A stretch of DNA of 64,000 nucleotides, taken from IMG/VR virus record IMGVR_UViG_3300028584_001240. One strand, 5' to 3'. Shown piece by piece: positions 1,522-64,000 of this stretch (position 1 is its first letter; every line of letters begins with the position of its first letter). A program made the translations under genes and the position numbers. This stretch comes from a virus. Its lineage: Duplodnaviria; Heunggongvirae; Uroviricota; Caudoviricetes. The notes beneath the pieces were generated by a model. It was not told the DNA's origin and made no database searches. It saw only the letters and a list, made by a program, of their open reading frames with translations.

Positions 1522-2187
1522 TTAAAATTGCATCATAGAAACAAGCGTCAATTTATTATCTAAATCATCAATAGTACTGATATCCAGCGTATCAGTGAAA
1601 GGTGGAAAGGTATCATTATAGTAATCTTCATAATTTTTATAAAATAAATACATAATTGCCATCTTATCGACTTTGTTCATGCAAAATTTTAATAGTTCTT
1701 GGTCTTTACCGTTGACACCATAAACACCTAATGGTTTATTATCTTTATTCATAAAGCAATAGATAACATGCTTAATGTCATCCCGCCAATGTTTATGTTT
1801 AGCAAGAAGACAATAAACAATTTTGTAGTCAAGCCGTAAACCAATATTGATCCAGTTCATGTCTTCAATAAAAATACTGGATATATATTCTTTTGTAATA
1901 CCATCATGAATAAAAGAATTACTTTGAATAAATTCATGTTTAAGTCGCAGGTTGAAACGGCTAATTTTTTTGACTATCTTGTAGTTTGTTTCTTTATCAT
2001 GTTTTTCAAGTGCCACTTCAAGATCAACAGCATGAATGCCATCAATAAAAACATGCAACGAATCTGCTTTTGGCGAGGTAGCGTTGATTTTAATTTTAAT
2101 GTCCATAGATTTCACATTTTGAAAAGACAATTGATTAAGAAAGTTAACCACTATCTTTTTTAGGAAATCAAAATTGTTTCTCTTCAT
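1522..2187 (-). CDS. Hypothetical protein with conserved C-terminal motif (…LTLVSMMQF)
   Basis: ORF track; own promoter and RBS; C-terminal L-x-x-M-x-x-F. Confidence 0.7.
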   Translation of the reverse strand: MKRNNFDFLKKIVVNFLNQLSFQNVKSMDIKIKINATSPKADSLHVFIDGIHAVDLEVALEKHDKETNYKIVKKISRFNLRLKHEFIQSNSFIHDGITKEYISSIFIEDMNWINIGLRLDYKIVYCLLAKHKHWRDDIKHVIYCFMNKDNKPLGVYGVNGKDQELLKFCMNKVDKMAIMYLFYKNYEDYYNDTFPPFTDTLDISTIDDLDNKLTLVSMMQF

Positions 2188-2243
2188 GACAGTATACCTT
2201 TTGGATTTACACTATTATAGCATTATAATAACATTTTATCAAT

Positions 2244-2269
2244 AAAAAAGACCACCGAAGTGGCCTTTT
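2244..2269 (-). terminator. Intrinsic terminator with C(UUCG)G tetraloop
   Basis: Minus strand GGCCAC-TTCG-GTGGTC followed by a U-run. Confidence 0.8.
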
Positions 2270-2285
2270 AACAAAGTTATGTAGT

Positions 2286-2774
2286 TTAAAAAGAATTATC
2301 TTCATCAACCACTTCAAAAACATCACCGTTGTCATCGTAGTATTCGATACGTTTAACAGACATCGTTGCAAAACCTTCTGATAAAACATCTTGTTCATAT
2401 AAGATGACATAAGGTGTGCCAATCACAGGTTTATGCATACTGAATTGAACAATATCATAGTTAATATCAATGAATGTCATATTACTGAGAGAATAAACAA
2501 CGCCATCCTGATATTCACGTTTTGGATTAATTCGCTCGTCAAAAAAATTGGCTCCACTATTATACATTTTTTCTTCAACAATAGCTTTATCTAATTCTTC
2601 TGAAACCATGATGAACTCTTTTAAATAGGCTTCCAACATTGCATAATCCGAATTATGAATCGTATATGTCCTGTAAGTATACAAATCATCATTACCAGTT
2701 CCATGTTTGTATTCAAACGTAATAACGAAACAATTCTTATACTTTTTTTCTATCGGTTTTATTGTTAATTTCAT
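2286..2774 (-). CDS. Hypothetical protein
   Basis: 162-aa ORF with AGGAG RBS. Confidence 0.65.
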   Translation of the reverse strand: MKLTIKPIEKKYKNCFVITFEYKHGTGNDDLYTYRTYTIHNSDYAMLEAYLKEFIMVSEELDKAIVEEKMYNSGANFFDERINPKREYQDGVVYSLSNMTFIDINYDIVQFSMHKPVIGTPYVILYEQDVLSEGFATMSVKRIEYYDDNGDVFEVVDEDNSF

Positions 2775-2790
2775 TTGTTAACTCCTGTTG

Positions 2791-4986: not shown

Positions 4987-5778
4987 TCAAATTGACACCA
5001 TTTTAAAAAGTAATATAAACTGTTCTATTTCTTCTGACTTCATATTCATAAATTCAGCTAATGTGAGGCCAGATAAACTCATGATTGTATTTAATTTACG
5101 ATACATATTATTCATGATTATTTTTTTTAGATTCATCATACATTGATTTATATCAACAGATTCAAATCTGCCATTTTGAATTTTAAACAAAAAATCATAT
5201 TCTTTTGATGCCGATATAATAGTTCTGTTTTGTTGGTCATCGTCAACAGGAAATGAAAATTCAATAACAGGAAGTAAAACCTGTTCACCAGAGGGTAATT
5301 GAATTTTTGCTATCGCCAATGAACAAATCAAAGCCCTATCACGATTATATAAACCAGTATGAGATATTTTTATCGTACTGGAAAAATCGTTCGAGTTATC
5401 TTGAGTTCCATATAATTGATTAGACTGTTGCCATGTATCTTTATTAAAAGGTGATTTTAAAGGTTCATTAAAAAATGAAACAGAATCATAGAGAATATTA
5501 GCATTATGCAAAACGGCATCATAATAACAAAAATTCAAAGGAAATACATCGTTTAAAATATCAACAGTTTTTAAATGCACTGAATTATCTGAAAATAAAC
5601 TTATTAGTTTTGATGTATGAATACCATTAGTTATTTTAATACTATTTTCATCAGCATCTGTCAAAACAACATGAGTATTTTTATTAATTTTACCTAAAAA
5701 CCCATAATCATCAAATAATTGAGAAATAGTTTCGAGATCATTTTTATTCAGATCACAAATTTTAAAATTATTCATCAA
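4987..5778 (-). CDS. Hypothetical protein, paralog pair A, C-terminal motif (…LLFKMVSI)
   Basis: Shares FFxEPLKxPF..TW and IAKI..PVI.F motifs with 5801..6604. Confidence 0.75.
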   Translation of the reverse strand: MMNNFKICDLNKNDLETISQLFDDYGFLGKINKNTHVVLTDADENSIKITNGIHTSKLISLFSDNSVHLKTVDILNDVFPLNFCYYDAVLHNANILYDSVSFFNEPLKSPFNKDTWQQSNQLYGTQDNSNDFSSTIKISHTGLYNRDRALICSLAIAKIQLPSGEQVLLPVIEFSFPVDDDQQNRTIISASKEYDFLFKIQNGRFESVDINQCMMNLKKIIMNNMYRKLNTIMSLSGLTLAEFMNMKSEEIEQFILLFKMVSI

Positions 5779-5800: not shown

Positions 5801-6604
5801 TTAAACTTTTAACATATTTGAAACCATGATAAATCGTTCTCTTTCGTCATCATCCAATTGTTTAAAATCTTTCAAAGCTACATCATCCATACCAATAGAT
5901 TTTGATAAACTGTTATAAATATGAGTCACCAATGATTTATTGTGCTTTTCAAAAAAAACATCATGTTCTGAGCGGTCGAGGTAGATCATTTTACCACTGT
6001 GTTGATAAAACATAAAATCATGTTTTTGACTGGCTGAGACAATCACTGTTCTATTCGTGATTCTGGACATAGGTAAAGTGAATTTTATGACTGGAACATA
6101 CCCATAAGTGCAATCAGCAAATTTAATTTTAGCAATTGAAAGTCTATGTTTCAACACCATGCGAGAATCATGTTGTCCTGCCGATGTATGACGGATTTTA
6201 ATATTTCTTGAAAAATCATCACATAGTTTTCTCTTTCTTGGGGATGGCTTAAACTGTTCCCATGTAGAATCTTCAAATGGGATTTTTAAAGGTTCATCAA
6301 AAAAATTGTTGATTGCATAAATTGGGTTCACTTTATCAATGATTTCTTGATAATAAGAAAAATCTAATGGATAAGTCTTTTTAAGAAAGTCAATAATAGG
6401 CAATGCCATTTTAGCGTCAGAATAATTGAGATGTATCGTAGCTGCATAATTCTGATTCGATACACTAATTCGATTAGACTGAGAATCGACAATGGATGTG
6501 TGAACATCCAAGTATTCACGGCCTAGTGAGAATCCACTACCAAAAGAGGCAGTGATTTCTTTTAAATCATCTTTTATTAACTTGCAAATAATAATATTTT
6601 TCAT
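5801..6604 (-). CDS. Hypothetical protein, paralog pair A, C-terminal motif (…MVSNMLKV)
   Basis: Paralog of 4987..5778. Confidence 0.75.
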   Translation of the reverse strand: MKNIIICKLIKDDLKEITASFGSGFSLGREYLDVHTSIVDSQSNRISVSNQNYAATIHLNYSDAKMALPIIDFLKKTYPLDFSYYQEIIDKVNPIYAINNFFDEPLKIPFEDSTWEQFKPSPRKRKLCDDFSRNIKIRHTSAGQHDSRMVLKHRLSIAKIKFADCTYGYVPVIKFTLPMSRITNRTVIVSASQKHDFMFYQHSGKMIYLDRSEHDVFFEKHNKSLVTHIYNSLSKSIGMDDVALKDFKQLDDDERERFIMVSNMLKV

Positions 6605-8864: not shown

Positions 8865-10088
8865 ATGAAAAATACAAATGCCAATATACTGGTATTGTTG
8901 AGTAATCACCTTTTCTTGAAAGAATACCTTTTAAAAATAGGTGTTATCGAATCAAAAGATAATAATATCAAAGGTAAGATTAACACGTTTTCTGTCAGTG
9001 AGAATAATTTGAACTTTCAGTTGACTGAATATTATGCTGCAGTTGACATAAAAATAATACTGTCATTTTTCCTACCTCACTTTACTAAAAATGAAATAAA
9101 ACAAGTTATATCCATGTTTGAATTTCATCATAATCTTTTTTGTGCTCCATTAGGTGAAAATGAAGTGTTTCATTTTGTTGTCACTAATAATCATGTTACA
9201 TTTAGCAGCAAACTCGTTGAATTCCAAGTGACTAAGCACTCTTTTGAGATATATCAGGAATGCTCATTTTTTGAAAGTGCATATTCATTAAAAAAATTAA
9301 ACGTAGTTGATTTTCAAAAAGCAATTATTGAACAGTTAAAAAAATCGCTATCACTCTATTTCAATAAAGACATAAAAAAAGTAAACAATACAATCATTGC
9401 TAATGTTGTGAATGAATCTATTCAAGATTACGATGCTCGGATCAATCATAAAGCTTTTTTTAAACAGTGGACTGATCATGATTTTTGTAAGAATATCAAT
9501 AATTCAAAATTATCATATGTCTTAAAAAATTATATTTATGAAGATGAAGAGTCTGATGCGTCTCTTAGTTTTCTAGAAAATAAAGATATAGCAATCATTA
9601 AACAAGATACAGAAACCAATATTATTGAATTAGATAACTTAAAAGACAGAATATCACTCTTTGTTGATGTCAATAATATAAATGTAATGAGAACAATATT
9701 GAAGCCAGTATTTCATGAAAAAGAATTGTCTTACTTACTCTCAATCATATCCCTAATGAGTTTTATAGAACAAATTGAAAACCCTTACTCCAGACAGAAG
9801 TTAATATCTATTGAAAAAGAACCCACTCTGTTTGATTCGAAAGAATATGTATTTTGCACTAATTACATTTTCAATATAAGTTTAGGTGATTTTAGCTTGA
9901 ATATTGGTAGAGAAACTGAAATAAGGTCTTATAGCCTACATGATTACAATTATTCATCTGACAAATTCAGTCTTATTTATAAAAATCTTGTCAACCTTTT
10001 AAAAAAATGGCTAACTAAGTCATTAGATGTCGAATCCAAAGAATTAACATTTGAACATGTCAGATTACAACAAATGAAAAACTCATAA
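8865..10088 (+). CDS. Hypothetical protein, paralog pair B, C-terminal motif (…RLQQMKNS)
   Basis: Colinear similarity with 10103..11350 (EIKQ.(I/V)SMF, LSYLLSII, IGR.TE). Confidence 0.8.
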   Translation: MKNTNANILVLLSNHLFLKEYLLKIGVIESKDNNIKGKINTFSVSENNLNFQLTEYYAAVDIKIILSFFLPHFTKNEIKQVISMFEFHHNLFCAPLGENEVFHFVVTNNHVTFSSKLVEFQVTKHSFEIYQECSFFESAYSLKKLNVVDFQKAIIEQLKKSLSLYFNKDIKKVNNTIIANVVNESIQDYDARINHKAFFKQWTDHDFCKNINNSKLSYVLKNYIYEDEESDASLSFLENKDIAIIKQDTETNIIELDNLKDRISLFVDVNNINVMRTILKPVFHEKELSYLLSIISLMSFIEQIENPYSRQKLISIEKEPTLFDSKEYVFCTNYIFNISLGDFSLNIGRETEIRSYSLHDYNYSSDKFSLIYKNLVNLLKKWLTKSLDVESKELTFEHVRLQQMKNS

Positions 10089-10102: not shown

Positions 10103-11350
10103 ATGAAAAAAATAAATTATAACACTGATAAATTAATGTCGAATCCAATTTTTATGAAAGATTATTTTATTTCAAACGGCATTATTGAAGTAGATAATAG
10201 AGATATTGACGACACCACAAATTGCTTTGCAATGAAAGATAATCAGCTTAGCTTTAACATTATGGAATACTATACCACGGCTAGCTTGGATCTTTGCCTA
10301 GCCTTCTTTCTGCCAAGTCTAACAGCATCTGAAATAAAACAAATAGTCTCGATGTTTACATTTCATTATCAATTATTCAGCGACTATCTACCTGAAAATA
10401 ACATCATCTACATAATGATTACAGATACTAATATTACATTTTCTAGTAAAATAATTGATCTATTGATAACAAAATCTTACTACAATATACAACAAGAGTC
10501 AGCTTTCTTTAAAAGAAACCATGCCTTGCATATATCAGTAGTGAATAAAATAAAAATAAAAGAATTTCATAAAATAATAATCAAGCAATTAAGAGTCTCA
10601 TTATCTAGTTACTTCAAGAAACATATAAAAGATATAAATGTTGAGTTAATCAACAAAGTGATTAATGAAAGTGTTGAAGACTACAATAATAGAATAAATA
10701 ACAACGTATATTTCAAAAACTATAATGATTATGATTTTTTTATAAATATTAAAAACTCTCATATAAACTATAAAACCGTTATGATAAAAGATTATGTAAA
10801 ATGCAATATGGAACCTGAACATGAATTAAAGAATGGTTATGAATTAGCTATCTTAAAACACAATCCAGAAAGAAATAAAGGTATTGAAAAAATTATAGAT
10901 AGAATATCTGTAAATGATCAAGTCGCTCTCTATATCTATACAAAGAATATTAAAACATTAAGAGTTCTATTAACACCTGTTTTTCAAGATCAAGACCTAT
11001 CTTATTTATTATCAATCATAGCGTTATTTGATTTTTATCAACAGATAAAAAATCCTTATGCTAATGAAATATTGTTGACCATCGACAAAGCTGCTAAAAT
11101 GATGATATCCAAAGAACATGCCTATACAAGTAATTCTATCTTCAATTTTTCTTGTAAAGATTTTAACATTAGCATAGGAAGAGACACAGAATTAAACACC
11201 TATGCTTTTAGTTATAAAAATGACAGTTTAGAAGCTATTTATAAAAAATTATGTGAACATATCTGCCATACGTTGGCGAAGTCTCAAGACATAGAACCTT
11301 CTGAATTAACTTATCAACATATCAAATTGGAACAAATGAAAAATTCTTAA
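10103..11350 (+). CDS. Hypothetical protein, paralog pair B, C-terminal motif (…KLEQMKNS)
   Basis: Paralog of 8865..10088. Confidence 0.8.
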   Translation: MKKINYNTDKLMSNPIFMKDYFISNGIIEVDNRDIDDTTNCFAMKDNQLSFNIMEYYTTASLDLCLAFFLPSLTASEIKQIVSMFTFHYQLFSDYLPENNIIYIMITDTNITFSSKIIDLLITKSYYNIQQESAFFKRNHALHISVVNKIKIKEFHKIIIKQLRVSLSSYFKKHIKDINVELINKVINESVEDYNNRINNNVYFKNYNDYDFFINIKNSHINYKTVMIKDYVKCNMEPEHELKNGYELAILKHNPERNKGIEKIIDRISVNDQVALYIYTKNIKTLRVLLTPVFQDQDLSYLLSIIALFDFYQQIKNPYANEILLTIDKAAKMMISKEHAYTSNSIFNFSCKDFNISIGRDTELNTYAFSYKNDSLEAIYKKLCEHICHTLAKSQDIEPSELTYQHIKLEQMKNS

Positions 11351-12304: not shown

Positions 12305-13120
12305 CTAAATAGTGTACATTTTTTCCACTTGTCGATATTTTTTAACCAGAACATCAAGTTCATCAATCGTTGTATACTTAAAATTACAAAAAATGTCTAT
12401 AGACTTAAACGAGTGTCGAAGAAACGTATCTTTATTAAAATCACCCATATTGTTGGCTCTAACAAAAAGGTGCTCCATTTTATTGTTGATATAATATCTA
12501 AGGTCATAATGGAAAAACAACATATCCTCATACGACGCCCCAAAACAAAAAGATAATGTTTCTTTAAATTGAGTGCCTTTATTAGCTAAATCAATCTGAG
12601 ATAGATATAAGTCAATATGAATACTACTTTTTCTAAGCGGTTCATCCAAAACCATAATACCAGATGTTTGGATGGCCTTTTTAACCATTGGACTTAAGTT
12701 AGCAAGGATAGACTTATAAAACTCAGGTGTTTTTTCTTTTTTAAGTGGCAAATGAAAACAATCGAACACAGAATTGTTAATCTGATAATTGAACACTAAC
12801 TCAATACGTGGTAACACATATTTATCATTCAAGTAGGCAAAGAAAGGGATATAGAAATCAGATTGATGAACTCGATAGAAACCATAAAGCTGACTTTCAT
12901 AGAACTCATAGTTTTGTTCTTCTTCGTCTTGAAATTCGAGATCTGTTTGAATTTGTGGTAATATTTTCTGATGTAAGAAAATGCATTCTACATCGCCCAT
13001 CGAACAATTGTAAGATTTTGCGACCATCTCATGAACACGTTCCGATTGATAAAATTTCAATTTATCATAATTGTAGTTAAAATATTGTTCAAAATAAGAT
13101 TTAAAATGTAAACTTTTCAT
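12305..13120 (-). CDS. Hypothetical protein, paralog array C, C-terminal motif (…QVEKMYTI)
   Basis: Shares HFK.(Y/F)FE.YF.Y, YGFYR, PLKKEKT with its two neighbours. Confidence 0.8.
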   Translation of the reverse strand: MKSLHFKSYFEQYFNYNYDKLKFYQSERVHEMVAKSYNCSMGDVECIFLHQKILPQIQTDLEFQDEEEQNYEFYESQLYGFYRVHQSDFYIPFFAYLNDKYVLPRIELVFNYQINNSVFDCFHLPLKKEKTPEFYKSILANLSPMVKKAIQTSGIMVLDEPLRKSSIHIDLYLSQIDLANKGTQFKETLSFCFGASYEDMLFFHYDLRYYINNKMEHLFVRANNMGDFNKDTFLRHSFKSIDIFCNFKYTTIDELDVLVKKYRQVEKMYTI

Positions 13121-13132
13121 TATTAACTCCAC

Positions 13133-13936
13133 TTAAATAAGATACATCTTTTCTACCTTTCTATATTCTTTGACAAGCGTATCCAACTCATTAATGGTCT
13201 TATACTCAAAACAACCAAAATCATTCATACCACTGAAAGATTGATTCAACATTTCAGCTTTATTGAAAGATAAGTTATTCAAGTTAATATTACTGCGATT
13301 GACCAGAAGATTTTCTACTTTTTTGTTGAGGCAATATCGAAGATAATAACGACAATGAAAAAAAGCATCAGTCACATCGTTATCTAGATTATTTTTATAA
13401 GTAATCGCAAAGGATTCATTGAAATTATGACCTCTATGAGCCACTTCCAACGTAAAATAATCAAAATCAAAATCAAAGTAAACGGAGCTTTTCTTAAACT
13501 GTTCATTCAATACCATCAAGCCCGATTTAGTGAGGATGCTTTTTATAAAGGGTTGAATATTTTCCATAGTCAATTCATAAAATTCCCGTGTTTTTTCTTT
13601 TTTAAGTGGCACATGGCGAAAATCAAAAACGGAATTGTTAATGTCGTAATTAAATTTCATTTCAACATGAGCAGTAACCAATGATGGTGAACAATGAGCA
13701 AAAAAAGGAACATAAAAATCTGAATTTTTTATCCTATAAAATCCATAGTGCTGTATTTCTTTATAGCGGTAAGTCAATGGGTTACTAAAAAGAAAGAAAC
13801 AATCGACTTCATCCAGCGTACACTCATACGAAGTAGCAATTTCTTTACGCACACAATCAGCGTCCCATAATTCAAGTTTTTCATAGGGATAATTGAAATA
13901 GGTTTCAAAGAAATGTTTAAAATGACTACGACGCAT
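13133..13936 (-). CDS. Hypothetical protein, paralog array C, C-terminal motif (…KVEKMYLI)
   Basis: Paralog in array C. Confidence 0.8.
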   Translation of the reverse strand: MRRSHFKHFFETYFNYPYEKLELWDADCVRKEIATSYECTLDEVDCFFLFSNPLTYRYKEIQHYGFYRIKNSDFYVPFFAHCSPSLVTAHVEMKFNYDINNSVFDFRHVPLKKEKTREFYELTMENIQPFIKSILTKSGLMVLNEQFKKSSVYFDFDFDYFTLEVAHRGHNFNESFAITYKNNLDNDVTDAFFHCRYYLRYCLNKKVENLLVNRSNINLNNLSFNKAEMLNQSFSGMNDFGCFEYKTINELDTLVKEYRKVEKMYLI

Positions 13937-14731
13937 TGTATAACTCCCATTTAAATAACATACATTTTTTCTAGCTGTCTATATCCTTCAACAAGATCAT
14001 TCAACTCATTAATATTCGTATAATCAAAATCACCAAACTCGCTCATACCACTAAATGATTGTTCAAGCATTTTATTTTTACTAAAATTAGCTGGATCATT
14101 AGTTTCAAGAAAAAGACATTCTTTCTTATTTTTTAGATAATAATTAAGTTCATATCTATAACATTTAATGATTTCTATCTCATACGGTTGGAGTAATGAC
14201 TTTTTACTTAAATAAAAATACTCATTAAAATTTTTACCTTTATTTGAAATTTCTAATGTATAAGAAGATAAGTTAAAATTAAAGATAATAAAACTTTTTA
14301 CAACCGTCGAAAGAAGGGTTGTTAATCCAGAGTTAAAAATTAATTCTTTAATATCTGGATGTATTTCTTTTAAAAATCGTTGATAAAACTCACTTGTTTT
14401 TTCTTTTTTCAAAGGGATATGTACACAATCAAAAATTGAATTGTTAATAGAATAATTAAATGCCAAATCTACATGTGGTGTGACCAAAAAATCAGTCTGA
14501 TGAATAAAAAACGGGATGTAAAAGTTAGATTTATTAATTCTGTAAAATCCATATAATTGAATTTCATGAGAACTCATTACTCTAGTAAAAAGAAAAAAAC
14601 AATCTACCTGTCTCAGTGGACATTTATAAAAATATGACAATTCCTTTTTAATAATGTCAGCACTCTGAAATTTCAATTTCTCATAAGGATAATCAAAATA
14701 GGTTTCAAAGAAATGTTTAAAATGACTACGA
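13896..14731. repeat. 36-bp exact direct repeat at the 5' ends of two array-C paralogs (13896-13931 and 14696-14731)
   Basis: AAATAGGTTTCAAAGAAATGTTTAAAATGACTACGA occurs at both positions. Confidence 0.85.
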
Positions 14732-14739
14732 TTCATCAT
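13951..14739 (-). CDS. Hypothetical protein, paralog array C, C-terminal motif (…QLEKMYVI)
   Basis: Paralog in array C. Confidence 0.8.
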   Translation of the reverse strand: MMNRSHFKHFFETYFDYPYEKLKFQSADIIKKELSYFYKCPLRQVDCFFLFTRVMSSHEIQLYGFYRINKSNFYIPFFIHQTDFLVTPHVDLAFNYSINNSIFDCVHIPLKKEKTSEFYQRFLKEIHPDIKELIFNSGLTTLLSTVVKSFIIFNFNLSSYTLEISNKGKNFNEYFYLSKKSLLQPYEIEIIKCYRYELNYYLKNKKECLFLETNDPANFSKNKMLEQSFSGMSEFGDFDYTNINELNDLVEGYRQLEKMYVI

Positions 14740-14746: not shown

Positions 14747-15592
14747 CTAAATTTTTATCATATCACTGATTTCTTTAATTCGTTTTTTTTCTTCATTGTA
14801 AAAATCAAACAATTCAATATGAGAATCAAAATGAGGAATAACATAATCATCCACATTGTAATGTTTTTGAATGGCTACCCTAAAAGGTTCTGAAATCATA
14901 GAAGGGTTCTCTTTAATTGTTGACCAAAAATCAATACTTGTGAACTTACCAGAGATAATGCCTTCCATTGGTTTCAATTGATAACATAATTCTTCCACTC
15001 TCGCTACATTCTTCTTATATTCAATACCATTACTATAAATATTAAAAAAGAATCCTGATGTATCGCTCATGTATTGAAACTCACAATCAAAAGAAATATC
15101 AGATGTTGGTTTAGTGTTAGGATCGGTTGCTTTCAATACATGCTGCTTATATTGCATGGGTGAGTTATCTTTATTGTAATAACTGTCATACAGAATGCTA
15201 AAACGTTCAGCGTCAGCACCTAAAAATTCTTTAAATGTTTCAACATTGAAATCATCTTCACGATTATCATCAAATAAAATACTTTGGAAACGATCATTAG
15301 CAATAGAAATATTAAACTTATACATTGCTCGATAACCTTTAATATATGTACAATCTAGATCACTGTCAATGGAGAAGTCGAGAGCCATAGGCAAGCAAAG
15401 GTCTTTATACCGAACAATGACATCAATGAGCCGTTTACCACGAAAAACAACATAATTAATCACATGAATATCATTGTTAGAAAGATCTTGGATAACAGGA
15501 AAAATGTCATTAAGCACTTTGCGAGCAAAGTCATCTACAATAAAGGCTTTCTTACGCTTATTTCCTTGCTGGACAAAATCAATCATACTCAT
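14747..15592 (-). CDS. Hypothetical protein with C-terminal motif (…EISDMIKI)
   Basis: ORF; start refined using AGGAG RBS. Confidence 0.7.
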   Translation of the reverse strand: MSMIDFVQQGNKRKKAFIVDDFARKVLNDIFPVIQDLSNNDIHVINYVVFRGKRLIDVIVRYKDLCLPMALDFSIDSDLDCTYIKGYRAMYKFNISIANDRFQSILFDDNREDDFNVETFKEFLGADAERFSILYDSYYNKDNSPMQYKQHVLKATDPNTKPTSDISFDCEFQYMSDTSGFFFNIYSNGIEYKKNVARVEELCYQLKPMEGIISGKFTSIDFWSTIKENPSMISEPFRVAIQKHYNVDDYVIPHFDSHIELFDFYNEEKKRIKEISDMIKI

Positions 15593-15694
15593 GTGACATC
15601 TCCTAAAATTTGAACAATTATAACACAACACCTTAAAACTGTAAACAAAAAAGCCACAACAAACGTTATGGCTTCATTTTACTAGACAAAACAA

Positions 15695-16403: not shown

Positions 16404-17192
16404 CTAAATTTGATCCATTTCTAAAACTAAAAGGGCTTTGTTTAAATCAAGTAAAATTTCGTTTATGGATTGATAGGTGTTATTAATAAAATCGGTAAGA
16501 CTGGGTTTAAGAAAATGTGACGAAAACAAATATTTCCAGTAATCTTGAACATCAAGGTTCTTTACATTAATCATAGTAAAGTTTTGAGAATTAAATGAAA
16601 ATGAATCGCCATCGTAATAAAAACTCATATTAGCATGAAATATTGTAGAAGTGCTTTGATAATGATTAATGAAATAACACATATTATTTCGCGTCAAATC
16701 AATTACGATCTTTAAAGATTTTCCATTTTTATTATCTATATGTGGATAGAAATAAAGAGATTCCAATACACCAGATAAATCAACAGAATGCTTAGTGGGT
16801 AATGTTGCAATCAATTTTTGAGTGTAATCATCTACCTGCGTTCTCAATACATTCTTCACTGGACTGTTAATGTGATGATAATCGTCATCATTAAATTTTT
16901 CGTCACGAGAATACACGACTGTATAATAAAGTGAGATATCCATCGAGTATCCTTTACTTGTTTTTGAGTCTTGAATATACCTAAATGGGATACGGAGTTC
17001 ATCAATATGAATGAAACCTTTACACTCAAAATTATTGTCTAAACAGGTAATACTGAAGACATTTATTTCAACAGACCGACCAAAATATTCATCCGCAATA
17101 GTTTTCATTAATGTATCGTGATGTGGAATGAACGAAAGTTCTCCAAAATGGGTATCGACCACTTTATGTTCTGTCAATTTTTTTTCATTCAT
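16404..17192 (-). CDS. Hypothetical protein with C-terminal motif (…LVLEMDQI)
   Basis: 262-aa ORF with its own promoter. Confidence 0.7.
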   Translation of the reverse strand: MNEKKLTEHKVVDTHFGELSFIPHHDTLMKTIADEYFGRSVEINVFSITCLDNNFECKGFIHIDELRIPFRYIQDSKTSKGYSMDISLYYTVVYSRDEKFNDDDYHHINSPVKNVLRTQVDDYTQKLIATLPTKHSVDLSGVLESLYFYPHIDNKNGKSLKIVIDLTRNNMCYFINHYQSTSTIFHANMSFYYDGDSFSFNSQNFTMINVKNLDVQDYWKYLFSSHFLKPSLTDFINNTYQSINEILLDLNKALLVLEMDQI

Positions 17193-18911: not shown

Positions 18912-19619
18912 TTAAAAATCAACAATTTCACTTAAACGAAACAACTCATTAAGATCACTATCGAAATCAATACTTGCATCTTCCAAGCAAGAAAATATAT
19001 CAGACTCTTTAAAAATATGCTTGCAGACCGTATCAAAATCACCACTGTATATTTTCACTTTATTTTTTGTTTTCTTACTATCACTGTATTTGCAACGCAA
19101 GACTATTGTTGAATCAAGAAAATGAAACTCCATATTTAAATTAAATTCACCTTTAATATCATAGATGACAACATGATCGCCACCATGAACTTCATTTTCT
19201 ACATTTTCAGCTACTAAATTATAGCTGTAATTGAAGGTAGCATTTTTTTGATGTGTAAAGTGTTCATAAGCGTCAAGAAAAAACTGTTCTGCATGGCAAC
19301 TATTAAGTGTGTTCAACTTCTTAAATACTTTGAAAACGTCTTCAAAACTAGAATAATGTTCGTTAGCAATAAAACCAATTGAACTATAAGCAGTAGCTGA
19401 AAAAGAAAAACTACCGTCTTGTTCTAATGTGTAAAAATAAGGAAACCCTTCATCAATAACACAATGGCGAATACCATTAGAATAATGAACAAGAATATTT
19501 TGAGCAGCCGGACTAAATACAGCATGCATACCATCAGTCTTAGGTGTCTCAAAAGTGTTTTCAAGTTCGGAACCATTTTTAAAACTTCTAAGAATCTTGT
19601 GATTTTTTCTTCTGTCCAT
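18912..19619 (-). CDS. Hypothetical protein with variant C-terminal motif (…RLSEIVDF)
   Basis: 235-aa ORF with clear promoter and RBS. Confidence 0.7.
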   Translation of the reverse strand: MDRRKNHKILRSFKNGSELENTFETPKTDGMHAVFSPAAQNILVHYSNGIRHCVIDEGFPYFYTLEQDGSFSFSATAYSSIGFIANEHYSSFEDVFKVFKKLNTLNSCHAEQFFLDAYEHFTHQKNATFNYSYNLVAENVENEVHGGDHVVIYDIKGEFNLNMEFHFLDSTIVLRCKYSDSKKTKNKVKIYSGDFDTVCKHIFKESDIFSCLEDASIDFDSDLNELFRLSEIVDF

Positions 19620-24325: not shown

Positions 24326-24408
24326 AAGTATAAATATCCCATGTTTATAAATTGACGACAGTATACCATAAAAGACTGTAAATAACAAATAAATTATGTT
24401 AAGTTAAC

Positions 24409-39995: not shown

Positions 39996-40007
39996 TTTCT
40001 AACCTCA

Positions 40008-43567: not shown

Positions 43568-44170
43568 ATGTCTAATTATAACATAAGTAAAAAACTAATA
43601 AAAAAACTAAATGATATGTATTTTATTGACTACATGGCTTTTCTTGATCTAGTTGAAAAATATAAGCCAGATAATTTCTCAACCAAATATATATATGCTC
43701 AAATTAAAAATATAGAAAATAACAGTGTTATCGACTTAGGCGAGATTCTGAAATTTAATATTGAAGATTTAAATACTGTCTTTACAAAGGATTGCGATTT
43801 AAAATTGGAAATGTATAAGATTATGCGATTACAAAATCAAGTCTATAAATTTCAAACTGAAGAATCAAATTTAACCTATCGTTATAACAATTTAAATCCA
43901 AACAATAAAAAGACATGGATAGAGCGATTGATAATAGATATAACTTTTTCAATCGTCCCATCCACCGGATTATTTAATTTTTTGAAAAAGGATAAATTTT
44001 ACACTTATCTTCATGCCAATAAGAAACCTTATCATTTTAAAAACATATACGATTTTTTGCTAACACCCTTTAAAGAGTTGGAAATAGAATGCTCAGAAGA
44101 CTATATCAAAAGTTTAAAAAAAGAAGAGTTTGATAATCTAATGAGCATATTTGATATGGTAGATATTTAA
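43568..44170 (+). CDS. Hypothetical protein with C-terminal motif (…SIFDMVDI)
   Basis: AGGAGG RBS. Confidence 0.7.
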   Translation: MSNYNISKKLIKKLNDMYFIDYMAFLDLVEKYKPDNFSTKYIYAQIKNIENNSVIDLGEILKFNIEDLNTVFTKDCDLKLEMYKIMRLQNQVYKFQTEESNLTYRYNNLNPNNKKTWIERLIIDITFSIVPSTGLFNFLKKDKFYTYLHANKKPYHFKNIYDFLLTPFKELEIECSEDYIKSLKKEEFDNLMSIFDMVDI

Positions 44171-48851: not shown

Positions 48852-49550
48852 TTATATTTTTGTCATTGCAATCAAAGAATTATAACGTGTAAAGTCTTCT
48901 GCATACAACTTTAATGACGCCAAAAAATCGTCAGCAATTAAAATATCTTTAATAGATGTATGTTCCCACAAAAAATAGAAGTCTCGTAAATATGGCTGAT
49001 AAAGCTCATTTAATCCATTTTCTTTCAAAAAAACTACATCACCCCTATCATAAATATAATGATCAGAAAGATGTTGATAATTTTCATCACTCAGTGTAGG
49101 ATCTTTATGGTTTTGAAATATCACTCTAACTCTCGTTAAATTACCAAACTTATCAAATGAAAATTCACTGCTAGCTCGTGTTTTATTTTCACATTCAAAA
49201 CCACCCAGTTCTTGAGCCATTAAATAAAATCTTTCACGAAGATCATGAATACTAAGGTCATCGGTATCAAATAATGGAACCAATGGCTCACCAACCCAAG
49301 CCAATATTTCATAATGGATATTTTCATAAAATGGACTTGTTTTGGTGGCCGAAACATTGACAGTTATTGGCTGTTTACCAGACAAAAAAATTTGAACTCG
49401 TTCATCTTCGATAACACTATTAAATTCACTAATATTTGTCCCTGATTGGTCAAAAACATTTTGCCACTTAGCATAAAAATTCTTCAAAATATCAGAAGAC
49501 ACATCTATAATATCGGCATCATCCACAATGATTGTTTTATTAATATTCAT
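48852..49550 (-). CDS. Hypothetical protein, array G, C-terminal motif (…SLIAMTKI)
   Basis: L..F..(K/E)W, F.FD, W.(H/R)(T/S).I, Y…(I/F).RY..L shared by four tandem genes. Confidence 0.8.
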   Translation of the reverse strand: MNINKTIIVDDADIIDVSSDILKNFYAKWQNVFDQSGTNISEFNSVIEDERVQIFLSGKQPITVNVSATKTSPFYENIHYEILAWVGEPLVPLFDTDDLSIHDLRERFYLMAQELGGFECENKTRASSEFSFDKFGNLTRVRVIFQNHKDPTLSDENYQHLSDHYIYDRGDVVFLKENGLNELYQPYLRDFYFLWEHTSIKDILIADDFLASLKLYAEDFTRYNSLIAMTKI

Positions 49551-49554: not shown

Positions 49555-50259
49555 TTAAATAAGCTCCATTTGAATTAAGGCATGATATCGTTCAATATCT
49601 TTGATATACAGAAAAAAAGACTTATAAAAATCATCTGAAATCAAACTTTCTCTGATATTGGATCGCTGCCAAATAAAATATAGATTTCGTAAGTGTTGCA
49701 AGTTAGTCTTGCTATTGGAATTATTATAAATTAAAAAATGACTGTCATTGTGTTCATATATACGGTGAGCAAATGCTCTGGTAGCAATATTTTTATTTGT
49801 ATTTTCAACCATGATAACAACTTCTTCAATATCAAGAGTTAAAAAATCAAAAGAAACTCTTACTCGAAATGTATTCTCATCAGGTATTTCTATTTTGAAT
49901 AATCTATTCGCTAATGACCAAAAATTAGCATACATATCATCTGGTGAAAACTTTTCATTCCTTAATGTTGTTAAATTTTTAGGTGTCACATCTAAAGAAA
50001 CAGTATAAATCATACTTTCATGGTTAATTTTTGAAAACATGGCTGTAAATGATAGTCTGAAAGGTCTATCATATGCTTCATCATAATCCGTTAGACGTAA
50101 TAAATACATATCATTTTGGTATGATTTTTTAATTTCATCAAGATTAAAAGACACTGCTTCAAAAAATAAAGGCCATTTTAACATGAATACATTTAATTTT
50201 TCATGTAAAACAGCATAAATTCCCTCATCAATTTTAATTAAGTTTTGATCATTCATCAT
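49555..50259 (-). CDS. Hypothetical protein, array G, C-terminal motif (…ALIQMELI)
   Basis: Paralog in array G. Confidence 0.8.
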   Translation of the reverse strand: MMNDQNLIKIDEGIYAVLHEKLNVFMLKWPLFFEAVSFNLDEIKKSYQNDMYLLRLTDYDEAYDRPFRLSFTAMFSKINHESMIYTVSLDVTPKNLTTLRNEKFSPDDMYANFWSLANRLFKIEIPDENTFRVRVSFDFLTLDIEEVVIMVENTNKNIATRAFAHRIYEHNDSHFLIYNNSNSKTNLQHLRNLYFIWQRSNIRESLISDDFYKSFFLYIKDIERYHALIQMELI

Positions 50260-50970
50260 TTAAATTTTTTCCATTTGTAACAAGGTGTGATAACGCTCAA
50301 TGTCTGCTGTATATATTTTATAAGCTTCATAGAAATGAGGTGTATTAATAATCTCTTCTATTGATGTATGTTCCCAAAGGAATTGAAAATTACACAAATT
50401 AACCACACCAGAACGAACCATATTATGTTTGCGTAATGCAACAATGTCATCAATTCTATAAAGAGAATGCTCAACCCTCCTAGCAGCATGATTTTCGTAA
50501 TGACTAAATGTCGTCTTAATACTTAACAAATCACCATCATGATCAAAAGCAAATATTAATCTAGACGTTTCATTTTCATTTAATTCAGATCCAATAACGT
50601 TTTGATAAAATGTTTTAAAGTCATTGATGAGTTTTACAGGGTCAATGTCTTTTGTTTTAAAGTTGTTGATACTGTCAGCATCCACGCTCACATGAACATT
50701 GTAATAATGTTCAGTATAAAACCCAGAGCTAATATTTGCAGAAACAATAATAGCAAACTTCTTAAGCGTGTTAACATTAATGCCTGTTGTCTTCAAAACA
50801 TGATGATAATCAGGATTCAATTCTGTTGTGGCTTCATCAAAGAAGATTTTATCATTAGCAAAAGCGAATTTCCACTTGCTATAAAATCGAGCAAGCACAT
50901 TGTCTGCGTACGCTTTGATAATAGAAGTTTCTTCTGGTGTTAGATTAATCTGATTCATCAACATCTCCAA
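50260..50970 (-). CDS. Hypothetical protein, array G, C-terminal motif (…TLLQMEKI)
   Basis: Paralog in array G. Confidence 0.8.
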   Translation of the reverse strand: MEMLMNQINLTPEETSIIKAYADNVLARFYSKWKFAFANDKIFFDEATTELNPDYHHVLKTTGINVNTLKKFAIIVSANISSGFYTEHYYNVHVSVDADSINNFKTKDIDPVKLINDFKTFYQNVIGSELNENETSRLIFAFDHDGDLLSIKTTFSHYENHAARRVEHSLYRIDDIVALRKHNMVRSGVVNLCNFQFLWEHTSIEEIINTPHFYEAYKIYTADIERYHTLLQMEKI

Positions 50971-51017: not shown

Positions 51018-51843
51018 CAAAAAAAGAGCCTAAGCTCTTTTTAAATAGAAATCTCATTTATATATTAAATGCGTTCCATTTGAAGTAATGAATGATAACG
51101 CTCAATATTGTCACTGTATAGCGTGTAAGCATTAAAAAAGACAACTTCATTCATCACCGTTCGAATATTAGTATGATCCCATAGAAATGTAAAATTACGA
51201 TAGTTAATGACACCCGTATGAACAAGATTGTAACCGCTTAATACATCTAAATCACTGACATGGTAGACAAAATGGTCTGCACGACAGGCTTCATCATTCT
51301 TATAAATAGTGAATGTCGTTTTAGCACTTAAAATCTTAGCGTCTTCATCAAAAACAAGGTATAAACCATAAGCATGTTTATCAACTTCTTTATAATTAAG
51401 AATAGATGTATAAAAGGTATGAAACTTATCACGAAGTTCAAGAGGGTTAAAATCATTTTTTTTAAAATCACGAACTCTATCACCATCAACAGCTACTGAA
51501 ATGGTATAAACATTCTGTAAAGAATAAGCTTTCCCTAAGATACCTGTCACAACGATATGCATCTTTTTTAACGTTGATACATTAACAGCAATAACTTTCC
51601 ATGTATACACCCCTTCACTTGGAAAATCAAGTTGATATTCATCAAAGTAGATTTTGTCATTATAAAATGAATGCTGCCATTCCTTACAAAAGTTATTCAA
51701 AATTTCAGATGCTCGCTTTTTGAAGACTTCCACTTCTGTATGCTTTATTTCTTCAGTCATAGTCATTCTCCAAGCTCAATATAATAACCGTATTATACTA
51801 CAAAATGAAAATAAACTCAATAAAAAAAGAGCCTAAGCTCTTT
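51018..51843. repeat. Duplicated terminator (AAAAAAAGAGCCTAAGCTCTTT at ~51018-51042 and ~51822-51843) flanking one array-G gene
   Basis: Identical hairpin at both ends, each next to a similar TATTATACTA promoter element. Confidence 0.75.
51065..51766 (-). CDS. Hypothetical protein, array G, C-terminal motif (…SLLQMERI)
   Basis: Paralog in array G. Confidence 0.8.
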   Translation of the reverse strand: MTMTEEIKHTEVEVFKKRASEILNNFCKEWQHSFYNDKIYFDEYQLDFPSEGVYTWKVIAVNVSTLKKMHIVVTGILGKAYSLQNVYTISVAVDGDRVRDFKKNDFNPLELRDKFHTFYTSILNYKEVDKHAYGLYLVFDEDAKILSAKTTFTIYKNDEACRADHFVYHVSDLDVLSGYNLVHTGVINYRNFTFLWDHTNIRTVMNEVVFFNAYTLYSDNIERYHSLLQMERI

Positions 51844-56023: not shown

Positions 56024-56099
<76 letters not shown>

Positions 56100-59505: not shown

Positions 59506-60255
59506 TCAAATACTATACATAATCGCAGTATCTAATTCATTTTTAGTATAATCAATAATTTTCTTATCGAAAGTATTATTAAACATGACAACTTCACTAT
59601 AACTCATGAAGACTTTTTTAAGATAGATTCCTTGCTTATTCATTTTAAGAAAAATACCTAACACAAACCATGTCTTAATATTCTTATTAAATCCGAGCAT
59701 ATAATTATTAGGTGTACCAGTAAACTTTCCAAAAATGCCATAATGAGTTGATGCAATAACAATTAATCCGGTTTCTTCACTTACCTTTGAAAAAACAGAA
59801 TTTTTAACATTGTGATATTGTTGAATTAGAACCTTTCTAAGTTCTATGGCTAGACACAATAATGCTACCGCATATAATATCTGAAAACTAATAATGGCGG
59901 GTATATGAGTTACTGTGCAAAATTTCAGCAGAAAATTTAAAATACAAATGACAACCACAAAAAAATAAAGAATTTTTGGAAGTATGTATTCAGTTTTTTT
60001 AATTCTAAAAGTTAAATAGTAAAATGAACTAACTAAATAAATTATACAAAAAATACTTAATAATGAACTAATAAAACCAATAAACATTTGTAAATCAAAA
60101 GTTCTTGTTAAAATATTAACTGAGCTACATGATGTTATACAAGCTAAAATAACAACCAATTTAGCAACATCATTGCTTTTAACAAAATTAAAAGCTCTAA
60201 TAATTTCAATTTTGAATAACGGCCAAACTTGCAGCCATACCAAAAGTATTTTCAT
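59506..60255 (-). CDS. Four-TM membrane protein with C-terminal motif (…ELDTAIMYSI)
   Basis: Four hydrophobic helices then a soluble tail ending in M-x-x-I. Confidence 0.7.
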   Translation of the reverse strand: MKILLVWLQVWPLFKIEIIRAFNFVKSNDVAKLVVILACITSCSSVNILTRTFDLQMFIGFISSLLSIFCIIYLVSSFYYLTFRIKKTEYILPKILYFFVVVICILNFLLKFCTVTHIPAIISFQILYAVALLCLAIELRKVLIQQYHNVKNSVFSKVSEETGLIVIASTHYGIFGKFTGTPNNYMLGFNKNIKTWFVLGIFLKMNKQGIYLKKVFMSYSEVVMFNNTFDKKIIDYTKNELDTAIMYSI

Positions 60256-61235: not shown

Positions 61236-61883
61236 TTAATAAGATATCATACTAAGCAGATCTTTACATCGTTTTTTATTATCAATTTTTTGACCTTGAA
61301 GGATAAGATTAAGATCAAAATGGTCATCTTTTACAATATCATTATTTGCATTATAAATACAAGCCAACACAAAATCAGGTAAAATTTCAAATATGGTTTG
61401 TGTTCCATTTAAATCATAATCAACTCCATCTGTGGTGATTTTGACAAAATCATCTTCTAAAATTAGTTCAATATGATTACTATACCTATTATTTCCAGAA
61501 CCATTGTAAGGTTTAAATGAATACAAGAAATCAAAACTAAATGATTTAAAAGTGAAATCGTTATTCAAGTAAAAAGCAAAGGTCAAGTAATAATGATTAA
61601 CCGTTTTATCGACATTATTAATCTGGGAGAAAATAAACTCACTGTTGAATAATACTTTAGTCCTATTATTAATGTTTTGAAACATACCTAACTCTTGACC
61701 AGAGTTATTGACTAATCGACCATAAGACATGTTATGATCCAGTGGTGTAGAAAGAGACTCTTTCAAAGCGTCATAACCGTCTAAATCATTACGATTAAGC
61801 TTTTTGAGCCTAAATCCTTCTGTATAATAAGGAAATACGTCCTTAAATATAGCTGACAAATCCATTCCATCTACAAAATACAT
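61236..61883 (-). CDS. Hypothetical protein with C-terminal motif (…DLLSMISY)
   Basis: GAGG RBS. Confidence 0.7.
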   Translation of the reverse strand: MYFVDGMDLSAIFKDVFPYYTEGFRLKKLNRNDLDGYDALKESLSTPLDHNMSYGRLVNNSGQELGMFQNINNRTKVLFNSEFIFSQINNVDKTVNHYYLTFAFYLNNDFTFKSFSFDFLYSFKPYNGSGNNRYSNHIELILEDDFVKITTDGVDYDLNGTQTIFEILPDFVLACIYNANNDIVKDDHFDLNLILQGQKIDNKKRCKDLLSMISY

Positions 61884-61884
61884 G

Positions 61885-62604
61885 TTAAACCTCTTTCATG
61901 GCATGCAATAACAAATAATCGTCCAGATTATCTACATTGACTTCTTTATAATCTATATTTACCAGTTCTCTAAAACCTTTCTCAATAAAGTAATCAATAA
62001 AAAAATCAAAAGCTTTGGCTTTTTTCTCAATAGATAAATCTTTCATGACTTCCTTTACATGCGAATCTTCAAACCCTATATTAATCAAATTATGATTTTT
62101 GTCAAATACAAAGGTAACATAAACAGAAGGATAATGGTAGGCAAAGAAGGCAGTAGTATGACTAACCACAAAATGACCAGATGTGTCGTCAAGATCAATC
62201 CTAAACCTATCCAGACGTTCGTCTTTCAATAACTTATATTTTGTAGGAATTGCTTTTTCTAATGAAGCACAATAAGACTGAACAAATTTCAAATTGCTCA
62301 GGATTCGTTCATGATAGGTCAATGCACTTTTACTGGATTGCTGAGTTGCCATATCGACTATTTTGAACAGATTATTGACACCACCTGCCGTGTTCATAAA
62401 AAAGATATGATAGTTTTCATAGTTCTCATAACTGAATAGGGTTTTATTTGTATAGTCATTTTCATTATTTAAATGAATCAAACCACCCGGCTTAGCCTTT
62501 TCATGAATGTATAAATCTAAAAAGCCATCGTCATCCTCACACTTCACCTCTTCAAAAGATAAAATGTATGATTTAATTAAGTTGGCTACTTCTAATTTAT
62601 CCAC
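61885..62604 (-). CDS. Hypothetical protein, pair I, C-terminal motif (…LLHAMKEV)
   Basis: C-terminal half similar to 63446..64000 (FD…N….F, K…F.FF..YF, DYL). Confidence 0.7.
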   Translation of the reverse strand: MDKLEVANLIKSYILSFEEVKCEDDDGFLDLYIHEKAKPGGLIHLNNENDYTNKTLFSYENYENYHIFFMNTAGGVNNLFKIVDMATQQSSKSALTYHERILSNLKFVQSYCASLEKAIPTKYKLLKDERLDRFRIDLDDTSGHFVVSHTTAFFAYHYPSVYVTFVFDKNHNLINIGFEDSHVKEVMKDLSIEKKAKAFDFFIDYFIEKGFRELVNIDYKEVNVDNLDDYLLLHAMKEV

Positions 62605-62722
62605 GTATGAATCCTCGGTAATAGAGCGTTATTATAACAAAAAATAAACCAAAAGTAAAGTTAAAGGAGTTCTTTAATTCACAATGTTTTTATGCTATAA
62701 TAGTTAAAATAATGAGGATTTA

Positions 62723-63382
62723 TTGATGTTAACAGCCTATCAATTAGAACAGGAACAACTAAACTGCAGTTTCTTTAAGCACACATTGACCCGACATATT
62801 GAGAGGCGAAAAGCAACCTATCAAAATAATGGATTTCAAACTCGTGACGGCGAAAGTATTGGTACCATGACTGCTGAAGAATTGGTTTTACAATTTAATA
62901 CAGAATTTGCAAAACATAACTTATCCGTAGCTTGTGAAGATAATATCAAACACGAAATATTATCAGGCGGCGATGTTAATCATTTACTCTCTACTTTATT
63001 TAAACCTTCTAATAGCTACAGTCCATCAACGATAAGATCTTTAATGAATTATATAGACCTTATGGAGTCTATTGCAAAAATAACGACAAAAGTATTTAAA
63101 CATGATCCTACTGATTACAGTCGATTAACTCCATTCGATATTGATTTTTTCTTGTCAAAAATGAGATTGCACACTAGAGAATTCACCTTGCCGACACAAA
63201 AAGGCCGTTCAATTGCAAAAAAACAATTAAAATTACTTGATGCTGATAATAGATTTCGCTATTTGCCAAAAACACTGTGTATGTTAATGGAACATAGTTT
63301 GCTTGATATTATGGCAAAAGAAGCAATTATTGTATATGACAGAAATCAAAGATTAAAGAATTCACCAGACATAACACTTTAA
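62723..63382 (+). CDS. Hypothetical protein
   Basis: 219-aa ORF with GAGGA RBS. Confidence 0.65.
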   Translation: MMLTAYQLEQEQLNCSFFKHTLTRHIERRKATYQNNGFQTRDGESIGTMTAEELVLQFNTEFAKHNLSVACEDNIKHEILSGGDVNHLLSTLFKPSNSYSPSTIRSLMNYIDLMESIAKITTKVFKHDPTDYSRLTPFDIDFFLSKMRLHTREFTLPTQKGRSIAKKQLKLLDADNRFRYLPKTLCMLMEHSLLDIMAKEAIIVYDRNQRLKNSPDITL

Positions 63383-63395
63383 AACAAAAAACAAT

Positions 63396-63424
63396 AAAAA
63401 CATCTGCCGAAACAGATGTTTTTT
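63396..63424. terminator. Bidirectional terminator
   Basis: AAAAACATCTG-CCGAAA-CAGATGTTTTTT. Confidence 0.8.
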
Positions 63425-63445
63425 ATTATGTTTTTTTGAGATTTA

Positions 63446-64000
63446 TTAAATATTAACCATTCTATAAATGGTGAGGTAATCACGAATTTCCTCAAAAGAT
63501 AATTCATCATACTTCTTACAAAGTTCATCTCTTAGCAAAGGGCTTCTGAAGTAAACATTAAAAAAGGCAAAGATAACTTTCTTATCTTCCAATGGATGTG
63601 TTCTAAACTTTTCTAAATTCGGATGTCGAAAGTAAACATCAACAATGTTAAAAGATTGATCAAATACAGCTCTAAATCCAGTGTCGTAGTTGAGCACATG
63701 AAATAATTTTATAACGCCATCAACATTTTTTAACACTGCTTTATAGCTGCTAGTGCGGTTATCAAGGAAAGGATTGTCAACACCCATGCTAGAATGCAAC
63801 TCATCATGCATACGGCGTAAGAATTCCATTTGAGTGAGGACGCGATCTATCGTAGGATACTTAGCAATGTAATAAAGAAAATTACCTGCCCCTGTAAATG
63901 AATAAGCCGCCTCATGTGGAGTATCAGCTTGATTGAAAACATGAACTTTGTGTTGTTCTGTTTGAATGTAGATTTCAGGCGTAGAAATATCTTGAACGCC
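63446..64000 (-). CDS. Hypothetical protein, pair I, C-terminal motif (…TIYRMVNI); 5'-truncated by window edge
   Basis: Frame stays open from 63829 to 64000. Confidence 0.7.
   Translation of the reverse strand, partial: GVQDISTPEIYIQTEQHKVHVFNQADTPHEAAYSFTGAGNFLYYIAKYPTIDRVLTQMEFLRRMHDELHSSMGVDNPFLDNRTSSYKAVLKNVDGVIKLFHVLNYDTGFRAVFDQSFNIVDVYFRHPNLEKFRTHPLEDKKVIFAFFNVYFRSPLLRDELCKKYDELSFEEIRDYLTIYRMVNI

Follow-up and report, generated by a model that had tools for sequence, protein, structure and literature searches.

The stretch of DNA considered here, called the window below, comprises 64,000 nucleotides of the IMG/VR virus record IMGVR_UViG_3300028584_001240, classified within the Caudoviricetes, and belongs to a contig of 1,851,360 bp. 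It has a GC (guanine plus cytosine) content of 31%, and greedy non-overlapping calling of open reading frames (ORFs) of at least 60 amino acids (aa) yields 82 ORFs. Many of the encoded proteins share one ending, a short tail with methionine exactly four residues from the C-terminus (position -4), and these proteins are referred to as carriers. The initial annotation had named 30 such endings, and all were recovered at the genes concerned, so that Met stands at -4 in 30/82 ORF ends. At the eleven other positions among the last 12, Met is found in 0 to 7 ORFs per position. Position -7 is Leu, Val, Ile or Met in 29 of the 30 carriers, the exception being the protein encoded from 59506, which has Thr there, and 21 carriers end in Ile; both figures agree with what had been claimed. 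The motif [LVIM]xxMxx[IVLFYM] closes 24 of the 82 termini and is seen at 45 of 18,746 internal positions, which corresponds to a 122-fold terminal excess, and no match in these ORFs ends 1-6 residues short of the terminus. Enrichment over shuffled termini had been suggested as a check. In 2000 rounds of shuffling the last 30 residues, the mean number of motif matches was 0.30 and the maximum 4, against 24 observed, and Met at -4 had a mean of 2.95 and a maximum of 9, against 30 observed. When ORFs related by BLAST are collapsed, Met at -4 is found in 15 of 65 lineages, for which the binomial P is about 1e-9 against a background Met frequency of 3.1%.

The tail consensus reads [ST]-x-x-[DE]-[LIF]-x-x-x-L-x-[LVI]-x-x-M-x-x-I-COOH. 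Lineage-weighted information peaks at -4 (Met), -1 (Ile), -7 (Leu, Val or Ile), -9 (Leu), -11/-12 (Lys, Arg or Asn) and -14/-15 (Asp or Glu). The conserved unit looks like a helix, about 17-24 residues long and nearly free of proline and glycine; over the terminal 18 positions, these two make up 4/540 residues in carriers versus 67/936 in non-carriers. Acidic residues account for 27% of positions -10 to -18 in carriers versus 18% in non-carriers, and -14 and -15 are mostly Asp or Glu by lineage-weighted counts. The tails show a hydrophobic periodicity close to 110 degrees whose phase is locked to the C-terminus, so the proposal that an i, i+3, i+6 spacing places the key residues on a single helix face was roughly right. 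The hydrophobic moment at 100 degrees does not separate tails (0.207) from other C-termini (0.216). A hydrophobic stripe is kept at -1, -4, -7, -10, -14 and -21. Carriers typically end in M-x-x-[I/V/F/Y], and none ends in AA.

A shared protein ending may in principle be no more than a by-product, either of a DNA or RNA element sited where genes end (a terminator, a promoter for the following gene or a recombination site) or of codon bias in a genome whose 31% GC favours ATT-TAA endings. The nucleotide sequences point elsewhere. Carriers use all three stop codons (TAA 21, TGA 5, TAG 4), Leu, Val or Ile at -7 and Ile at -1 are written with differing codons, and no common nucleotide motif is present around the carrier stops, from 48 nt on the 5' side to 60 nt on the 3' side. 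What follows the stop differs from case to case and can be the ribosome-binding site of the next gene, a sigma-70-like promoter or a terminator hairpin. Given this variation in stops, in synonymous codons and in what lies downstream, the constraint acts on the protein. A nucleic acid element as the cause is excluded on these grounds and, with only 3/52 non-carriers ending in Ile, the probability of a by-product of either kind is negligible.

The carriers fall into seven BLAST families (A-G), which form tandem arrays on both strands, and eight singletons. The initial annotation had counted at least seven families and some ten singletons, a tally that is borne out among the strict carriers. Most are 200-294 aa long, and the two members of family F have 407-415 aa. 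BLAST finds no similarity between the bodies of different families, and in profile-profile alignments by hhalign every one of 136 family pairs has E > 0.03, several of the best matches covering only the terminal 25-45 aa. With deeper profiles for families D and A (23 and 25 sequences), the last 24 residues alone align, end to end, at E 0.008. The claim that unrelated bodies carry the same tail is thus upheld at the level of both methods, and it is the tails alone that align. No carrier matches a known family above noise in Pfam, PHROGs or PADLOC. No gene with a Pfam enzyme family has the tail, as had been said of the recognisable enzymes. Within the window, no carrier has a signal-peptide-like start, and proteins that do have such a start are never tailed. 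One carrier (59506..60255) is a membrane protein with four transmembrane helices within residues 30-139, followed by a C-terminal part of 110 aa; because of the positive-inside count, this part and its tail are assigned to the cytoplasm.

Homologues were collected for three carrier families, giving 16-27 sequences each, all of them metagenomic and either labelled 'hypothetical protein' or unannotated. They lie on contigs of 1,917,244, 1,859,102, 1,843,594, 1,281,823, 773,483 and 520,353 bp. The loci are syntenic among these relatives, and the tail is retained in orthologues at 40-93% identity. Over 41 pairs of orthologues or paralogues, the last 17 residues are 65% identical and the bodies 54% (Wilcoxon P 3e-5). 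The best-kept positions in these pairs are -4 and -10 (90%), followed by -1, -7, -14 (68%) and -21 (71%). Three ORFs (from 18912, 22417 and 29440) had been singled out as variants with Ile in place of Met, and reading their tails beside those of relatives shows that they are genuine. Natural variants with one or two extra residues also exist, with the endings ...MYSIK, ...MYAIK (two relatives) and ...FDK. A tail profile of 30 columns built from 62 sequences gave 0 matches at E <= 0.001 among 1.84 billion representatives, a database in which so short a profile has no chance of becoming significant. No description of the motif or of the replicon was found in the literature on megabase phages and elements or on C-terminal packaging tags.

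Table 1. Carriers of the C-terminal tail, their variants and other features discussed. Tails are taken from ORF translations, some of them compared with orthologues; families A-G were defined by BLAST among the window ORFs. Coordinates without a prefix are those of the window; those prefixed with L refer to other sequences.
Feature	Coordinates	Strand	Length (aa)	C-terminal residues	Remarks
Carrier, singleton	1522..2187	-	221	...KLTLVSMMQF	orthologue ends ...LVSMMQY
Carrier, family E	4987..5778	-	263	...FILLFKMVSI	
Carrier, family E	5801..6604	-	267	...FIMVSNMLKV	
Carrier, family F	8865..10088	+	407	...HVRLQQMKNS	
Carrier, family F	10103..11350	+	415	...HIKLEQMKNS	
Carrier, family D	12305..13132	-	275	...YRQVEKMYTI	
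Carrier, family D	13133..13936	-	267	...YRKVEKMYLI	structure predicted
Carrier, family D	13951..14739	-	262	...YRQLEKMYVI	
Carrier, singleton	14747..15631	-	294	...IKEISDMIKI	
Carrier, singleton	16404..17192	-	262	...ALLVLEMDQI	
I-for-M variant	18912..19619	-	235	...LFRLSEIVDF	Ile at -4 in all relatives
Decayed or extended variant	22417..23616	-	399	...QLLSILNFDK	relatives canonical: ...LLSMINI, ...LISMLNY, ...LLAMLNI
Carrier, singleton	23627..24388	-	253	...SHALSAMINI	
Variant, related to family B by tail region	29440..29982	+	180	...NDELIMVRIYHYK	I-for-M plus one Lys
Carrier, family B	29993..30727	+	244	...ELTVLKMRVI	
Carrier, family B	30728..31492	+	254	...DITVIQMGLI	
Carrier, family B	31489..32193	+	234	...DILVLEMNNT	
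Carrier, family B	32206..32901	+	231	...ELKLFEMYLE	
Carrier, singleton	34990..35697	-	235	...RLLMVEMMEC	relative: last 17 aa identical, body 56%
Carrier, family A	38131..38733	-	200	...QEMVYEMDLI	
Carrier, family A	38749..39378	-	209	...QLLVEEMKTI	
Carrier, family A	39378..39995	-	205	...QKTLEAMVAI	structure predicted
Carrier, family A	40008..40664	-	218	...QKTVDDMSLI	
Carrier, family A	40661..41281	-	206	...QRTINHMERI	
Carrier, singleton	43568..44170	+	200	...LMSIFDMVDI	
Carrier, family C	48852..49550	-	232	...YNSLIAMTKI	
Carrier, family C	49555..50259	-	234	...YHALIQMELI	
Carrier, family C	50260..50970	-	236	...YHTLLQMEKI	
Carrier, family C	51065..51766	-	233	...YHSLLQMERI	
Carrier, membrane protein	59506..60255	-	249	...ELDTAIMYSI	four transmembrane helices
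Carrier, singleton	61236..61883	-	215	...CKDLLSMISY	
Carrier, family G	61885..62604	-	239	...YLLLHAMKEV	
Carrier, family G	63446..64000	-	at least 127-184	...YLTIYRMVNI	frame leaves window
Family A array	38131-41281	-			five tandem copies
Family A array of relative	L005:9366-11287				three tandem copies
P0067, P-loop NTPase	L040:13407-14999	+	530		about 52 kb upstream of window, 99%-identical strain
Carrier upstream of window	L040:11738-12529	-		...LLRMVKI	about 1.7 kb from P0067, paired with P0066
P0066, TPR protein	L040:11307-11741	-	144		start overlaps stop of the preceding carrier gene
Carrier and TPR gene of relative	L042:896-2142				66-73% identity
Three tandem paralogues (including P0063)	L037:17778-20077	-	248-257		two with Met at -4, one with Ile at -4
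Alanyl-tRNA synthetase core protein	21390-22226	-	278		Pfam tRNA-synt_2c, residues 8-165
Class II synthetase fragment (tRNA-synt_2b)	L036:7764-8519		251		upstream
GC-richer segment	52001-56000				GC 37% vs 31%
tRNA-Thr(UGU)	56027-56099	-			
Methyl-accepting chemotaxis protein	57100-58752	-			HAMP and MCPsignal, two transmembrane helices

One explanation of the common tail is descent: the carriers would be highly divergent members of a single fast-evolving superfamily, and the tail would be the last helix covering a beta-sheet, kept by descent and folding. The size range most carriers share and their arrangement in tandem paralogue arrays fit this, and structure predictions bear on it from both sides. 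The AlphaFold model of the family D protein has a mean predicted local distance difference test score (pLDDT) of 76, with a confident alpha/beta body at residues 1-215, a linker at 228-244 below 50, and a tail helix at 248-263 of low confidence. The family A model has a mean pLDDT of 87, and its tail helix (residues 186-204) stands at about 95. Neither model resembles a known fold, and only weak PDB matches were obtained; among the top-50 of each, 8 are common to both (as an example, 4h62_Q, 9kue_D, 6i3y_C, 6u9e_A and TamA barrels). Both models also begin with a helix, continue through a meander of 4-5 strands, a long helix and a second meander, and close with a short helix and the tail helix. 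It should be kept in mind that the comparison covers these two families only, and was made by element order and PDB matches. Given the similar order and the overlapping matches, one remote fold is possible. The membrane protein with four transmembrane helices cannot have the same N-terminal half as the modelled families. The folds of the bodies had been proposed as the check to make here, and the outcome is mixed: no known fold was matched and the bodies do not align in sequence, but the A and D layouts are broadly similar. On balance we regard a single superfamily as unlikely. Were it true, this would be a large and explosively diversifying superfamily with the last helix as its sole constant part, which would still be unusual. 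Family A also differs in copy number, with five tandem copies in the window and three in a relative, so copy number shifts fast; one of the relative's copies, of 212 aa, no longer has the canonical end and finishes in ...KTNKVLK.

The reading that we prefer, tentatively, is that the tail is a portable helical tag at the C-terminus of unrelated cytoplasmic orphan proteins, read by one cytoplasmic partner that handles them transiently, as in sorting or translocation; this is quite possible. The reader would recognise the last ~20 residues whatever the body, and would pass its clients on to a motor or gate, through which they would be exported, moved into another cell or packed into a particle. 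The tail would then act much as the C-terminal signals of type IV secretion substrates do, its upstream half being acidic and its extreme end hydrophobic. Transience is suggested by numbers. About 58 kb upstream of the window, on contigs from this strain or one 99% identical to it, could be added to the window (~122 kb examined in all), and this upstream part contains 17 further carriers. Carriers thus make up about one third of the genes over >120 kb, which makes stable occupation of a single site unlikely and favours transient handling.

The same numbers bear on two other explanations. In the first, the tails would bind stably to each other or to one scaffold, either as a helix for co-assembly or oligomerisation (into a body or condensate) or as a hub-docking peptide comparable to the tails of phages T4 and T7. 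A helix without Pro and Gly and with a conserved hydrophobic stripe is what such binding could use. The spacing in the stripe is mostly 3 and not the 3-4 of a heptad, which makes a classical coiled coil improbable, and a single stable site would face competition among dozens to hundreds of clients, all of which leaves stable co-assembly very unlikely. In the second, the tail would be a degradation tag or adaptor handle for an AAA+ protease encoded by host or replicon (ClpXP, ClpAP, Lon or FtsH) or for a tail-specific protease, marking a set of proteins that is short-lived or cleared at a set time. Transient handling by a protease agrees with the high number of carriers, the two-part build (acidic upstream half, non-polar extreme end) and the cytoplasmic orientation are suitable, and the presence of the tail on a membrane protein fits FtsH or ClpXP better than it fits packaging. 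To our knowledge, however, the tail consensus has nothing in common with the LAA-type or MuA-type motifs of ClpX, and an invariant Met(-4) with conservation back to -21 is more elaborate than known bacterial C-degrons. Protease or adaptor genes were not seen nearby either, and a degron is distinctly unlikely.

If a tag is read by one partner, the partner may be encoded on the same replicon, and two genes upstream of the window are possible candidates for reader and helper, to be taken as leads only. P0067 is a soluble P-loop nucleoside triphosphatase (NTPase). A stretch of 64 aa (residues 149-212) has high identity to the Legionella protein IcmO/DotL (PDB 6sz9; phmmer E 4e-17), and a second, colinear stretch matches weakly. 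No Pfam family of type IV coupling proteins is found in P0067, and the NCBIfam models TrbC and TraD cover residues 149-217 only. The NTPase domain as a whole matches mad8, a component of the MADS defence system (E 5e-10); MAD7-MAD8 has been described as an ATPase-nuclease module (PMC13662399). A homologue with 29% identity is carried by pPL1, an unannotated plasmid of 1.17 Mb from Pseudomonas silesiensis (NZ_CP143488.1). In 41 kb around that homologue, Met at -4 is found in 1/46 ORFs and the full motif in 0/46. Beyond this there is one JGI orthologue, and a scan of GTDB with non-conserved patterns gave none. The second candidate, P0066, is a TPR protein whose gene, on the strand opposite to P0067, is directly joined to that of a carrier, an arrangement that is kept in a relative. 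Complex prediction of P0066 with the tail peptide gave no answer (score 0.01), which weighs neither way. Separately, the three tandem paralogues of the P0063 group contain a stretch of ~30 residues that matches a conserved segment of T2SSE (PilT/GspE/DotB), with the remaining ATPase missing; P0063 itself, at 26 bits, is just over the Pfam cut-off for T2SSE.

Several observations weigh against a tag with a single reader. No reader for the tail was found in the ~122 kb, and no further secretion genes, capsid genes or shell genes were recognised there; as for shells, Pfam scans of 68 proteins from the window and the upstream region contained no encapsulin or bacterial microcompartment (BMC) families. 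P0067 has no transmembrane anchor (reading of residues 1-148 reveals no hydrophobic segment) and no counterpart of the C-terminal adaptor region of DotL, and its match to mad8 means that it possibly has no tie to secretion. The high confidence of the family A tail helix implies that it may pack on its own body and not be free, the tails with extra residues (...MYSIK, ...FDK) indicate that a free carboxylate right after Ile is not strictly needed, and the homologues all come from one narrow clade. The initial annotation had described a variable body with a constant handle, read by one receptor. Of this design the bodies unrelated in sequence and a terminus-locked tail that is kept better than the bodies have stood up, but the search for a reader produced no receptor.

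The replicon that carries these genes is about 1.85 Mb in size at 31% GC, and near-complete relatives of 1.84-1.92 Mb recur in metagenome assemblies from JGI, ENA and Logan. An exact 40-mer search together with a search for family D gave no match in GTDB species genomes or IMG/VR. A Pfam family is assigned to only about 15% of the genes; the recognisable ones include several aminoacyl-tRNA synthetases or fragments of them, tRNAs, a PBECR5 nuclease and PcfJ. Promoters and ribosome-binding sites are of bacterial type. Thg1 is nearest to jumbo-phage Thg1, and a T4 Y00F-like Pfam match on one gene, present in precomputed data, was absent from our own rescan. The replicon may be a phage or a plasmid-like element of giant size, or else an unusual cell. 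A 57-nt core of its tRNA-Thr(UGU) has exact matches in 22 genomes of GTDB. Most of these are Moraxellaceae, among them Fluviicoccus, Agitococcus, Perlucidibaca and Amnimonas, with almost nothing outside that family, which suggests Moraxellaceae either as the host lineage or as the ancestry of the replicon.

Other genes of the replicon deserve mention. The window encodes a stand-alone protein corresponding to the catalytic core of alanyl-tRNA synthetase, in the same position in all relatives, and a class II synthetase fragment lies upstream. The GC-richer segment of the window includes a 497-aa protein without a clear family, two paralogues of 167-168 aa and two tRNA genes. A complete methyl-accepting chemotaxis protein is encoded amid orphan genes, which is unusual in a phage-like element.

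Taken further, the tag could be the label of an undescribed sorting route in a megabase phage- or plasmid-like replicon of a gammaproteobacterial host. Here the reader, perhaps the DotL/mad8-like NTPase with the TPR protein as helper, would deliver hundreds of fast-evolving orphans out of the cytoplasm, the destination being either a recipient or host cell or a particle; together the orphans would amount to a diversified arsenal. This wider scenario is doubtful. If there is one reader, the tail would give the client list of an undescribed machine straight from sequence, with dozens of clients in the window and probably hundreds in the replicon, and the orphan genes of a very large undescribed element would become a testable system. 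The tag is also short, strict and portable, and could be used to look for further instances of the system in metagenomes.

Known systems that use a terminal peptide on many proteins resemble the tail in part. Encapsulins and microcompartments also employ a short, often helical terminal peptide on unrelated cargo, which is read by one shell surface. Here, in contrast, no shell gene was recognised in the ~122 kb, the consensus differs, and there are far more carriers, one of them an integral membrane protein. In the ssrA/SspB/ClpX system the signal is likewise anchored at the terminus, with a non-polar end, and faces the cytoplasm, and the upstream part of the present tail could bind an adaptor in the same manner; unlike ssrA, the tail is encoded in the genome protein by protein, is longer, helical and centred on Met, and has no LAA-like end. 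The clamp-binding tails of T4 and the acidic tails of T7 gp2.5 and gp4 are cases in which unrelated proteins of one mobile genome have the same short end, which in T4 and T7 docks on one hub. These involve 3-10 functionally linked members and another motif, whereas here there are dozens of orphans in paralogue arrays. A type IV coupling protein has an N-terminal transmembrane anchor and an FtsK/TraD-type NTPase with an all-alpha insertion, a build that P0067 does not share. The Dot/Icm type IVB system differs in that its signals have no strict consensus, while the present tail has an invariant Met(-4) and a register set by the stop codon. The DotL-like protein of the replicon is soluble, has 530 aa instead of 783 and is equally like mad8, and no further Dot/Icm component was seen in the ~122 kb. 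In other respects the two are alike. Dot/Icm signals, which are recognised by the DotL/IcmO coupling-protein complex, occupy the last ~20-35 residues of hundreds of unrelated orphans without signal peptides, and the conserved positions of the present tail, running from -1 to about -21, are likewise contained in the terminal ~35 residues. Acidic residues ~10-17 from the end, with hydrophobic residues at -1, -4 and -7, recall the Dot/Icm E-block, and a DotL/IcmO-like P-loop stretch is encoded on the same replicon as the tails.

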